From Actinomycetaceae bacterium (lineage in GTDB: Bacteria > Actinomycetota > Actinomycetes > Actinomycetales > Actinomycetaceae): a DNA stretch of 64,000 nt. Shown one piece after another: positions 59,558 to 64,000 of this stretch. Location: positions 4,671-68,670 of the forward strand of contig JBQDDG010000007.1 in NCBI GenBank assembly GCA_052093225.1, written 5' to 3'. Position 1 is the first letter of the stretch, and every line of letters starts with the position of its first letter. The notes below the pieces were generated by a model. The model made no database searches, was not told where the DNA came from, and worked only from the letters and a program-made list of their open reading frames with translations. The position numbers and the translations under genes are program-made.

Positions 59558-62069
<2,512 letters not shown>

Positions 62070-62093: not shown

Positions 62094-62128
62094 GCAGCGG
62101 CCGCCACCTTCACGGTGGCGGCCGCTGC
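62094..62128 (+). terminator. Hairpin terminator after mdh
   Basis: GCAGCGGCCGCCACC-ttcac-GGTGGCGGCCGCTGC 15-bp perfect stem. Confidence 0.78.
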
Positions 62129-62154: not shown

Positions 62155-62250
62155 GACGGGCCATGCCGCACCACGGGAGCCGGGCCGGTGAGCAGCAGGG
62201 GAGACGGGCCGGGCCGCACCACGTGAGCCGGGCGGTTGCACAGCAGGGGA
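62155..62250. repeat. Two tandem degenerate 48-bp repeats
   Basis: GACGGGCC..GCCGCACCACG.GAGCCGGGC.G..G..CAGCAGGGGA at 62155 and 62203. Confidence 0.75.
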
Positions 62251-62376: not shown

Positions 62377-63090
62377 ATGACCGAGTACGAGGACGAGAGC
62401 GGAGTCGAGCCGGAGCTCGTGCTGGGGACGGACGAGGACCGGTTCGTCGAGATCGGGGTCGATCTCGCGGGCCGCATCGCGCACGTCGAGATCGACGGGG
62501 CGTGGTCGGCGGAGCTGACGACCGAGGAGTTCGCCGATGCCCTGATGGGGGCCTACGGCAACGCATCCGTAGCACTGGTCGAACGGCTCAGTGAGCAGAA
62601 CGACTCGTCGGCGGGCGGTGTGGTGCCGCCAGTGACGCCGATCAGCGAGCGGGTCCGCCGCCGGGTCGACGAGCGCCGTGCAGAGGGTGCCGCAGTCGGC
62701 GACCGGCAGCCGGCCGAACCGTCTGCTCGCAGCGAGGCGGACGAACGGCGCCGTGAGGACCAGCTCGAGGAGGCGATGCGCACCGTCGAGCTCGCCGGGC
62801 GCGCGCGCGAGGAGCGGGCGGGATACCAGGAGCGGCTCATCGAGCTGCACACGACGGAGTTCGAGGACTCCAGCTCCGAGCACACCCTCACCGTCGTCTC
62901 GCGGTACGGGACCCCGGTGAGGTTCGAGCTGAGCGACATCTGGACCCGCCGGCGGGCCGAGCCGCTCGCCCGCGCGGTGATCGAGGTGACGGAGGCGGCG
63001 GCAGCCAGACGCGAGGAGCTGGACCGACAGCTCGCCGTCGAGTTCCCTGCGACGACCGAACTGATCGCACGATCCACCACCACCAGCTGA
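62377..63090 (+). CDS. Hypothetical protein with two putative YbaB/EbfC-like (EspD/EspH/EspL-like) domains
   Basis: SD AGGAG; two segments with the pattern [S/D]xDxxVxVxVxxxGxxxxxxI...LxxAxxxA (DEDRFVEIGVDLAGRIAHVEID; SSEHTLTVVSRYGTPVRFELS). Family call is pattern-based only. Confidence 0.55.
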   Translation: MTEYEDESGVEPELVLGTDEDRFVEIGVDLAGRIAHVEIDGAWSAELTTEEFADALMGAYGNASVALVERLSEQNDSSAGGVVPPVTPISERVRRRVDERRAEGAAVGDRQPAEPSARSEADERRREDQLEEAMRTVELAGRAREERAGYQERLIELHTTEFEDSSSEHTLTVVSRYGTPVRFELSDIWTRRRAEPLARAVIEVTEAAAARREELDRQLAVEFPATTELIARSTTTS

Positions 63091-63119
63091 CGTCCACCCA
63101 CCTGAAACGGAGAACACCG

Positions 63120-63425
63120 ATGAACGTCAAGGTCGACACCGGAGACCTGCGTCGCGACGCGGCGCACTGGAGCTCGTTCTCGAGCGACACCTACTCACCG
63201 ACCGCGAACAAGGTCGCCTCTCTCACCCTGCCCGCCGGCGCATTGCCGGGCGCCGCGCTCGACATCGGCGTCGGTGACGCCTATGAGACGGTCCGCTCGA
63301 CGGTGGACACGCTCGCGGGGGACGCGCCCACGGCCTTCACCTCGATCGCCCAGGTGTTGCGCCGAGCGGCGGACATCTACGACGAGACCGACCAGCAGTC
63401 CGAGATCGACTTCAACCGCGTCTGA
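63120..63425 (+). CDS. EspC/EspF-like type VII secretion target (~100 aa)
   Basis: N-terminal VKVDTGDLRRDAAHW; C-terminal LRRAADIYDETD with the YxxxD signal; 101 aa and predicted helical. Confidence 0.7.
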   Translation: MNVKVDTGDLRRDAAHWSSFSSDTYSPTANKVASLTLPAGALPGAALDIGVGDAYETVRSTVDTLAGDAPTAFTSIAQVLRRAADIYDETDQQSEIDFNRV

Positions 63426-63455
63426 GCGCCCCGACGACCAAGGAGACAGGACGAC

Positions 63456-64000
63456 ATGTCACTCAAGGACTCGATCATCGCCGAGGCGGACCCGCTGCTG
63501 ACCGACATCAACCAGTTGATCGATGACTGCACCGAGGTGCAGGTCTCGTGCCCGGGAATCCTCCGGTACCTCGTCGACCCGACGATCGACCCGCTTCGCG
63601 AGGACGCCCGGCGCCTCATCGAGTACGTCGAGGAGATCATCGACCGGCTCGGTGACGCCGAGCTCATCCGGCAGACCGCGCTCGACTGGCAGGCCTGGGG
63701 CGACGAGATGGGGACGAACGCCACCCAGATCAGCGACACCGGCACAAACCTCCCGTCGCTCGACTCGTGGGAGGACAACGGCGACGTGTACAAGAAGGTG
63801 CAGGGCCAGCAGCACGCAGGGGTCGCTACGGCACTCACCGAGATCGCGTACGCCATCCACGACCAGCTCGAGGACATGGCGCAGCACCTGGAGAACTACT
63901 GGCGGCAGGCATTCGAGTTCATCGGGCAGATGGTCGTTGGGGTCGTGGGCCTCATCGGGTCGATCGCAGGACTCATCGCGGCGTGCCTGGGCACGTTCGC
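63456..64000 (+). CDS. WXG100-like/EspA-like N-terminal domain protein, partial (runs off window; not in ORF track)
   Basis: SD AAGGAG; open frame MSLKDSIIAE...LGDAELIRQTALDWQAW...DSWEDNGDVYKKVQGQQHAG... followed by a hydrophobic helix; no stop before 64000. Confidence 0.65.
   Translation, partial: MSLKDSIIAEADPLLTDINQLIDDCTEVQVSCPGILRYLVDPTIDPLREDARRLIEYVEEIIDRLGDAELIRQTALDWQAWGDEMGTNATQISDTGTNLPSLDSWEDNGDVYKKVQGQQHAGVATALTEIAYAIHDQLEDMAQHLENYWRQAFEFIGQMVVGVVGLIGSIAGLIAACLGTF

Follow-up and report, generated by a model that had tools for sequence, protein, structure and literature searches.

A tandem YbaB, EspC-like, and WXG-hairpin gene cassette after mdh in a Georgenia-like actinobacterium: a probable ESX-type substrate module

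The DNA analysed here, called the window, is a stretch of 64,000 nucleotides from Actinomycetaceae bacterium (GenBank assembly GCA_052093225.1, contig JBQDDG010000007.1), corresponding to C7:4671-68670 of a 3.09-Mb draft genome with 73% GC. The three open reading frames at its end (ORF1, ORF2, and ORF3), which follow the malate dehydrogenase gene mdh, probably constitute a self-contained substrate module of an ESX-type type VII secretion system (T7SS; here T7SSa), made up of a chaperone, a partner carrying a YxxxD motif, and a cargo in which a WXG-like domain is joined to a hydrophobic hairpin. The host is a Georgenia-like actinobacterium, monoderm and non-mycolate, of the Micrococcales type, with a single T7SS. 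The genes of the cassette are:

62377..63090, + strand: ORF1, 237 aa, predicted tandem YbaB-fold protein, presumed EspD/EspH/EspL-like chaperone
63120..63425, + strand: ORF2, 101 aa, putative EspC/CFP-10-like small helical partner with a C-terminal YxxxD
63456..64000, on to window-equivalent 64226, + strand: ORF3, 256 aa in full, as read from the contig extension

The three genes are co-oriented, with an AGGAG or GGAG box 6-9 nt 5' of each ATG, and the contig runs 15 kb past the window end. An earlier interpretation made from the letters of the window (the sequence-only reading) had described three co-oriented genes led by Shine-Dalgarno boxes after mdh, and the coordinates, lengths, Shine-Dalgarno boxes, and identity of mdh were all verified.

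ORF3 was modelled with AlphaFold2 (AF2) as an all-helical protein (predicted local distance difference test score, pLDDT, 79.8; helices 3-31, 34-63, 68-92, 109-178 of 70 residues, 184-205, and 208-232), with the W105-G109 motif placed in the loop that connects helix 68-92 to helix 109-178. Its plan comprises two N-terminal helices, a WXG-like helical hairpin (W78, W105-EDN-G109, Y112, and Q119), a hydrophobic hairpin, and a 48-residue tail with a conserved G-x-W-P. Hydropathy analysis showed an uninterrupted, uncharged hydrophobic stretch at residues about 152-208 (~55 residues), enough for a two-helix hairpin and bordered by strongly acidic flanks (30 acidic versus 10 basic residues before the hairpin, 6 versus 2 after it). 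The hairpin is rich in small residues, with one GxxxG (168-172) and, within 168-204, six small-xxx-small-xxx-small runs, and the hydrophobic segment contains no strict GxxxGxxxG zipper. Pfam and NCBIfam scans of ORF3 returned only weak membrane-family noise (Holin-X E 6.8e-4, MARVEL, PspC-TM).

Only 57 ORF3 relatives (clusters at 50% identity) turned up when 1.84 billion representatives were searched exhaustively with HMMER; they were matched over most of their length and were about 214-308 aa long but for two outliers. Residues W78, W105, Y112, L138, and W249 were invariant in the family alignment, most members carried the canonical W-x-G-x-A-x-x-A-Y, ORF3 itself conserved W105, Y112, and Q119, and the C-terminal G-x-W-P was conserved across 18 diverse members. 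When 18 members were scanned, WXG100 was matched by 10 (best E 6.8e-6), EspA_EspE by 9 (6.5e-5), and WXG100_2 by 4 (5e-8), these matches most likely lying below the cutoffs. The ORF3-family profile detected a PF18879 protein (83 bits) in another actinobacterial genome (HMMER E 1.5e-6 per genome; hhalign 53% probability, E 1.3e-4), and this protein is followed by EspC (72 bits) and then a YbaB-like gene, i.e. a bona fide espA-espC-espD-type locus. The same profile matched N-terminal residues 86-260 of a 958-aa Ntox15 toxin encoded on contig C18 of the query genome (E 2.4e-7; hhalign 75% probability). These two links suggest that ORF3, short and payload-less, is related to EspA/EspE and to the trafficking domains of toxins. 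The description of ORF3 as a helical WXG100/EspA-like protein gains some support from the family-level links, and a direct profile match for ORF3 alone was not found. In genome G111, also actinobacterial, a bona fide EspA_EspE protein of 300 aa (L027 396-2262) has a hydrophobic Pro-turn hairpin (about 190-255) right after its WXG domain, which suggests that such a hairpin may be a feature common to EspA/E-type proteins, not an ORF3 peculiarity.

ORF2 matched the Pfam profile T7SS_ESX_EspC (PF10824) at 23.9 bits with a cutoff of 23.5 (protein 2-95, profile 4-95 of 100), and scored 22.0 bits, under the cutoff, in a six-frame search of the genome. Its C-terminus, ...IYDETDQQSEIDFNRV, holds Y87-x-x-x-D91 (Y87-D-E-T-D91) 10 residues before the end, and a T-D-x(6)-F motif (TD and F98) was invariant across six relatives. 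The best PDB matches of the ORF2 profile were full-length EsxA, EsxB, and the YxxxD region of EspB, all weak (E about 0.1) and none individually significant. By these profile and motif comparisons, ORF2 can be marginally assigned as an EspC/CFP-10-like small helical protein with a putative YxxxD export motif; the length of 101 aa and the motif given in the sequence-only reading were confirmed, and its EspC-like label passed the PF10824 cutoff marginally.

The AF2 model of ORF1, built on a 7-sequence alignment, was confident (pLDDT 83.3) and contained two beta-beta-beta-helix modules, arranged in the model as follows:

residues 15-79: module 1, three strands and a helix
residues 80-117: linker, acidic/basic, low confidence, disordered
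residues 118-222: module 2, a helix, three strands, and helices

In a Foldseek search of the PDB with this model, ranks 1-3, 5, 7-10, 12, and 14 were YbaB-family proteins (probability 0.98-1.0, TM-score 0.61-0.79, root-mean-square deviation 1.9-4.5 Å), with E values of only 5e-3 to 7e-2 and with the aligned half of ORF1 not distinguished; the matches included 1j8b, 1pug, 3f42, 1ybx, and 5yrx (H. influenzae and E. coli YbaB, HP0035, Cth-383, and Rv3716c). The N-terminal and C-terminal halves of ORF1 weakly resembled each other (hhalign P = 0.008). At the fold level, the model supports two YbaB-like modules of the helix/three-stranded sheet/helix 'tweezer' fold, so that the two YbaB/EbfC-like repeats proposed earlier were borne out by AF2 and Foldseek, with a sequence match below the Pfam cutoff.

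A T7SS core was located in the same genome. EccC (TIGR03924 841 bits, cutoff 509) lies on contig C1, adjoined by a second EccD-like protein, and a run on contig C59 holds mycosin (E 1e-68, below the equivalog cutoff), EccB (TIGR03919 201 bits, cutoff 154), EccD (Pfam 86 bits), and esxA/B; four WXG100 proteins are present in the genome. A genome-wide search for eccC, eccB, and mycP had been proposed together with the sequence-only reading, and it found EccC, EccB, EccD, and mycosin, so that the genome does hold a T7SS ATPase. Among 61 relatives, 7 had an ORF3-family match at E<=1e-5, and EccC was present in 7/7 of these versus 16/61 overall, a suggestive co-occurrence. At C59:10020-13426, 3' of esxA/B, paralogous small helical proteins of 127 and 114 aa, starting M-x-IEL-x-PEVL-x-ARV, are encoded along with a third protein, at least 247 aa long; Pfam gave no match for the 127-aa one, and these proteins beyond esxA/B may be further candidate T7SS substrates.

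At least 7 independent occurrences of the three-gene architecture were counted, of which two adjoin esx genes. The trios elsewhere (L024/L039, L040, L046, L047, L048) consist of a tandem-YbaB protein of ~200-260 aa, a partner of ~101-107 aa, and a WXG-hairpin protein of ~230-265 aa, and in L047 and L048 the trio adjoins WXG100 esx genes. A membrane protein is encoded 3' of the cargo gene in four distant cases (L023, L040, L047, and L048) and in none of the query genus; these downstream proteins would suit an immunity role. Two related cassettes are present in the query genome itself:

C44:4460-6305 (L018), - strand: paralogous cassette, 233-258 aa, 107 aa, and 237 aa; diverged
C18:58230-62445 (L006 covers part), - strand: T7SS polymorphic toxin cassette, YbaB-like (21.4 bits), EspC (30 bits), 958-aa Ntox15 toxin, and 127-aa ORF

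The C44 paralogue, also carried by two sister genomes, has a clearly lower GC content at third codon positions (GC3), at 0.73-0.84 (0.7th to 5th percentile), and a convergent 145-aa protein with four transmembrane segments ends 26 nt from it. No significant similarity indicating a shared immunity family was found among the C44, L040, and L023 membrane proteins, and the L040 and L023 membrane proteins had no homologue in the query genome. The C18 toxin has Ntox15 as its C-terminal domain (E 1.4e-19) and contains a long linker of SNPSNPPGDSTP-type Pro/Ser repeats; the 127-aa ORF after the toxin, which had no family match, may be a candidate immunity gene. A literature search for YbaB combined with EspC and a toxin found nothing.

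ORF3 stops at residue 256, window-equivalent 64226, ending in the hydrophobic helical hairpin and tail, and is followed by a GC-rich terminator-like hairpin, a 250-nt spacer, and an unrelated LTD/SpaA surface protein. No toxin family in Pfam or NCBIfam was matched by ORF3, and no immunity-like gene was found in or beside the cassette in 4/4 genomes of the genus. The sequence-only reading had taken ORF3 as the N-terminus of a polymorphic toxin, with the toxic C-terminus and an immunity gene lying past 64000. The contig extension shows neither, and the 256-aa stop refutes this candidate; such a cassette does exist on C18, and ORF3 is related to the N-domain of its toxin, but with a family length of about 214-308 aa bar two outliers and with a hairpin and a surface protein next in line, we give this version practically no credence.

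In each of the genus's four genomes (including Georgenia sp. Z1344 and Actinomycetales bacterium JB111), the cassette occupies the same position behind mdh. Identity across the genus was 94-95% for mdh, 27-54% for ORF1, 72% for ORF2, and 51-80% for ORF3, and the ratio of nonsynonymous to synonymous substitution rates (dN/dS) against Z1344 was 0.27, 0.35, and 0.15 for ORF1, ORF2, and ORF3, rough values with dS near saturation. By these sequence comparisons the cassette genes are under purifying selection yet fast-evolving relative to mdh. GC3 was 0.87, 0.92, and 0.93 for ORF1, ORF2, and ORF3 (11th, 29th, and 36th percentile; genome median 0.946). An accessory origin, which had been proposed from a surplus of A/T-ending codons, was ruled out on these unremarkable percentiles and on the synteny after mdh: conserved position in four genomes, near-normal codons, and a paralogue on another contig together indicate that the cassette was not inserted recently as accessory DNA.

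In the proposed mechanism, ORF3 would be the cargo, with a WXG-like helical domain related to EspA/EspE and, fused to it, the hydrophobic helical hairpin. ORF2 would pack on the WXG domain of ORF3 to form a helical bundle and would supply the YxxxD half of a bipartite export signal read by EccC. ORF1 would act as a single-chain tandem YbaB pseudo-dimer, a helper of the EspD/EspH/EspL type, holding the ORF2/ORF3 pair in the cytoplasm and shielding the hydrophobic hairpin until export. The pair would then be exported by EccB, EccC, EccD, and mycosin encoded on the other contigs, and the exported ORF3 hairpin may insert into a membrane, with no enzymatic toxin domain involved. Precedents exist for the individual steps: EspD, EspH, and EspL are YbaB-like proposed chaperones of EspA/C and EspE/F (PMC6107294, PMC6109436), EspA pairs with EspC (PMC3227618), small helical partners target T7SS toxins (PMC13444075, PMC10801868), and in EsxX, a glycine-zipper toxin, a soluble partner keeps the hydrophobic motif sequestered until export (PMC12744356), the last of which offers a concrete model for how ORF1 might act. 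The earlier proposal of an ESX locus like espA-espC-espD in reverse order was thus retained in its three-part logic and agrees with the T7SS core found in the genome, and its toxin extension was dropped.

Several observations weigh against this interpretation. All direct family assignments of ORF1-ORF3 are marginal: ORF1 reached 16.9 bits against Pfam YbaB_DNA_bd (PF02575; gathering cutoff 25.5) over residues 15-75, i.e. the N-terminal module only, and its C-terminal half alone had zero sequence-level family matches; the PF10824 score of ORF2 exceeds its threshold by just 0.4 bits, and in hhalign the alignment of the ORF2 family with bona fide EspC was limited to the C-terminal motif; ORF3 itself matched nothing at E <= 1 for WXG100 or EspA_EspE (PF06013, PF18879) in Pfam and NCBIfam. 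The WxG of ORF3 is degenerate (W105-E-D-N-G109, a two-residue expansion), and Foldseek of its model against the PDB gave nothing significant and generic helical bundles only, with PPE4 (6uuj_B) among the matches at probability 0.97 and TM-score 0.53, but E 0.78. The absence of Ecc machinery from the window, as noted earlier, extends to the whole contig, placing the cassette away from the ecc genes on C1 and C59. The 7 genomes in which the ORF3 family co-occurs with EccC span only 4 genera, so this association is suggestive, not strong.

As part of the same T7SS module, ORF3 could specifically be an interbacterial membrane-depolarising or pore-forming toxin, an analogue of S. aureus TspA/EsxX or S. 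gallolyticus TelE, with ORF1 as a cytoplasmic neutraliser like ExiAB and with immunity encoded elsewhere or unneeded. We regard this as possible but rather unlikely. The ~55-residue small-residue-rich hairpin with its GxxxG and small-xxx-small runs, the weak Holin-X match (E 6.8e-4), the fast evolution relative to mdh, and the EsxX precedent of a glycine-zipper domain sequestered by a soluble partner before export (PMC12744356) are consistent with it, as is the small membrane protein that follows the ORF3-like gene in distant members L023, L040, L047, and L048; those downstream proteins are, however, not homologous to each other, and the genus's four genomes have a terminator after ORF3 and no immunity-like gene in or beside the cassette. 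A strict GxxxGxxxG zipper is also absent from ORF3, and the cassette has a fixed position, vertical inheritance, and a C-terminus that is not polymorphic. The lack of an immunity gene in the genus together with the fixed chromosomal position mildly favours a non-suicidal role in the envelope of the producer, and the downstream membrane proteins in relatives argue for a toxin role. Alternatively, no secretion takes place: ORF3 would reside in the membrane after Sec/YidC insertion, its two ends cytoplasmic, ORF1 would be a nucleoid-associated or DNA-binding regulator of the YbaB type, and ORF2, a small helical partner, would have no relation to T7SS. DNA binding is the primary activity of YbaB proteins, ORF3 has weak matches to Holin-X, MARVEL, and PspC-TM, every direct family match is marginal, and the cassette is far from the ecc genes, all in keeping with this improbable reading; it is countered by the acidic flanks of ORF3, which are at odds with the positive-inside rule, by conservation of YxxxD in ORF2 and of WxG in the ORF3 family, by co-occurrence of that family with EccC, by the same cassette standing beside esx genes in L047 and L048, and by homology of ORF3 to the N-domain of a T7SS-type toxin.

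The cassette could also be a decayed, non-functional remnant of a toxin cassette from which the toxin domain was lost, since ORF3 resembles a toxin trafficking domain minus its payload and has a degenerate WxG; frames intact in four genomes, dN/dS of 0.15-0.35, uniform family length, the G-x-W-P kept across 18 diverse members, and retention of a paralogous copy make this highly improbable. The ESX-type substrate module described above stays the preferred explanation.

The region 5' of the cassette was annotated as follows:

61080-62069: mdh, NCBIfam malate dehydrogenase, 544 bits, preceding the cassette
62094..62128, + strand: mdh terminator hairpin, 15-bp perfect stem with a 5-nt loop (inverted-repeat search)
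62155..62250: two 48-nt tandem direct repeats, 85% identical, with 24-nt sub-periodicity, in the spacer 5' of ORF1 (repeat search)

The perfect hairpin between mdh and ORF1 indicates that the cassette is its own transcription unit. The spacer between this hairpin and ORF1 is ~250 nt long and holds the two tandem repeats, whose 48-nt unit occurs nowhere else in the genome (blastn), and which may be a candidate operator, regulatory site, or promoter region of the cassette. Upstream of mdh, a CNNM/CorC-type DUF21-CBS membrane protein is encoded at 59558-60982 (PaeA-like NCBIfam best match, 210 bits, below cutoff); Georgenia sp. Z1344 has this gene ahead of mdh too, and a link with the cassette is improbable. 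The gene 3' of the cassette is:

L001 4150-8262, just past the window: surface protein, 1370 aa, with a signal peptide, a lamin-tail domain, nine SpaA-fold repeats, and C-terminal GDWDGDGxDT repeats

Among its SpaA repeats is an internal duplication, almost exact, that spans about 210 aa. Between ORF3 and the counterpart of the 1370-aa protein, both Georgenia sp. Z1344 and JB111 encode an extra protein of 2186-2236 aa.

To our knowledge, the roles of EspA/EspC/EspD-type proteins are among the least understood in ESX secretion and have been studied almost only in mycobacteria. The locus offers a minimal EspA/C/D relative, just three genes, in which the cargo has 256 aa and the helper is a fused double YbaB; its host is a monoderm actinobacterium, small and non-pathogenic, with one T7SS. 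This minimal set in a simple background makes testable the chaperoning of hydrophobic hairpins by YbaB proteins, the contribution of the EspC-like partner to the export signal, and the role of the WXG-hairpin outside the cell. The ORF3 family is small (57 clusters) and carries no annotation, so any function assigned to it would be new. It is conceivable, though we would not presume it, that with the combination of tandem YbaB, EspC-like partner, and WXG-hairpin monoderm Actinobacteria possess a separate and so far undescribed class of T7SSa cargo, in which a small protein lacking any enzymatic toxin domain would be delivered, insert into membranes, and form pores in them or depolarise them, the double YbaB clamping the hairpin rather than DNA. 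If so, homology would point to membrane insertion as the ancestral job of EspA/EspE-type proteins and of actinobacterial T7SS toxin N-domains; if the locus is ordinary, it adds one more orphan T7SS substrate set.

Among known systems, actinobacterial T7SS polymorphic toxin cassettes (such as the C18 cassette and the experimentally investigated EatA/TapA1/TapA2/EatI of M. abscessus) consist of a YbaB-like protein, an EspC/WXG100 partner, a toxin with a WXG/LDXD-type N-domain, and immunity, and share with the present cassette the use of small helical partners and an elongated helical N-domain that target cargo to the T7SS (PMC3482391, PMC13444075); the present cassette differs in having no C-terminal toxin domain, no immunity gene, and a tandem YbaB helper. 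The Firmicute T7SSb toxins TspA, EsxX, and TelE likewise join a helical targeting domain to a short membrane-active segment, hydrophobic and rich in small residues, which in EsxX is sequestered by the soluble partner ExiAB before export (PMC12744356), but they use LXG domains with Lap-type partners, a strict glycine zipper, and an adjacent dedicated polytopic immunity protein in place of EspC and YbaB, and no homology between them and the cassette was detected. PE-PPE-EspG follows the same logic, in that a YxxxD/E protein pairs with a WxG protein and a hydrophobic tip is shielded by a chaperone, with an EspG instead of a YbaB chaperone fold, no sequence relationship, and a PPE4 structural match that is not significant. 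The ESX-1 sets EspA-EspC-EspD and EspE-EspF-EspH of M. tuberculosis and M. marinum have a larger substrate of the WXG type, a ~100-aa PF10824 partner, and a proposed chaperone with the YbaB fold (PMC6107294, PMC6109436). Compared with these, the gene order here is reversed (D-C-A), two YbaB domains are fused in the helper in place of one, the cargo has 256 aa rather than about 390, ends in a fully hydrophobic hairpin, and misses PF18879, and the host is monoderm and non-mycolate with one T7SS.

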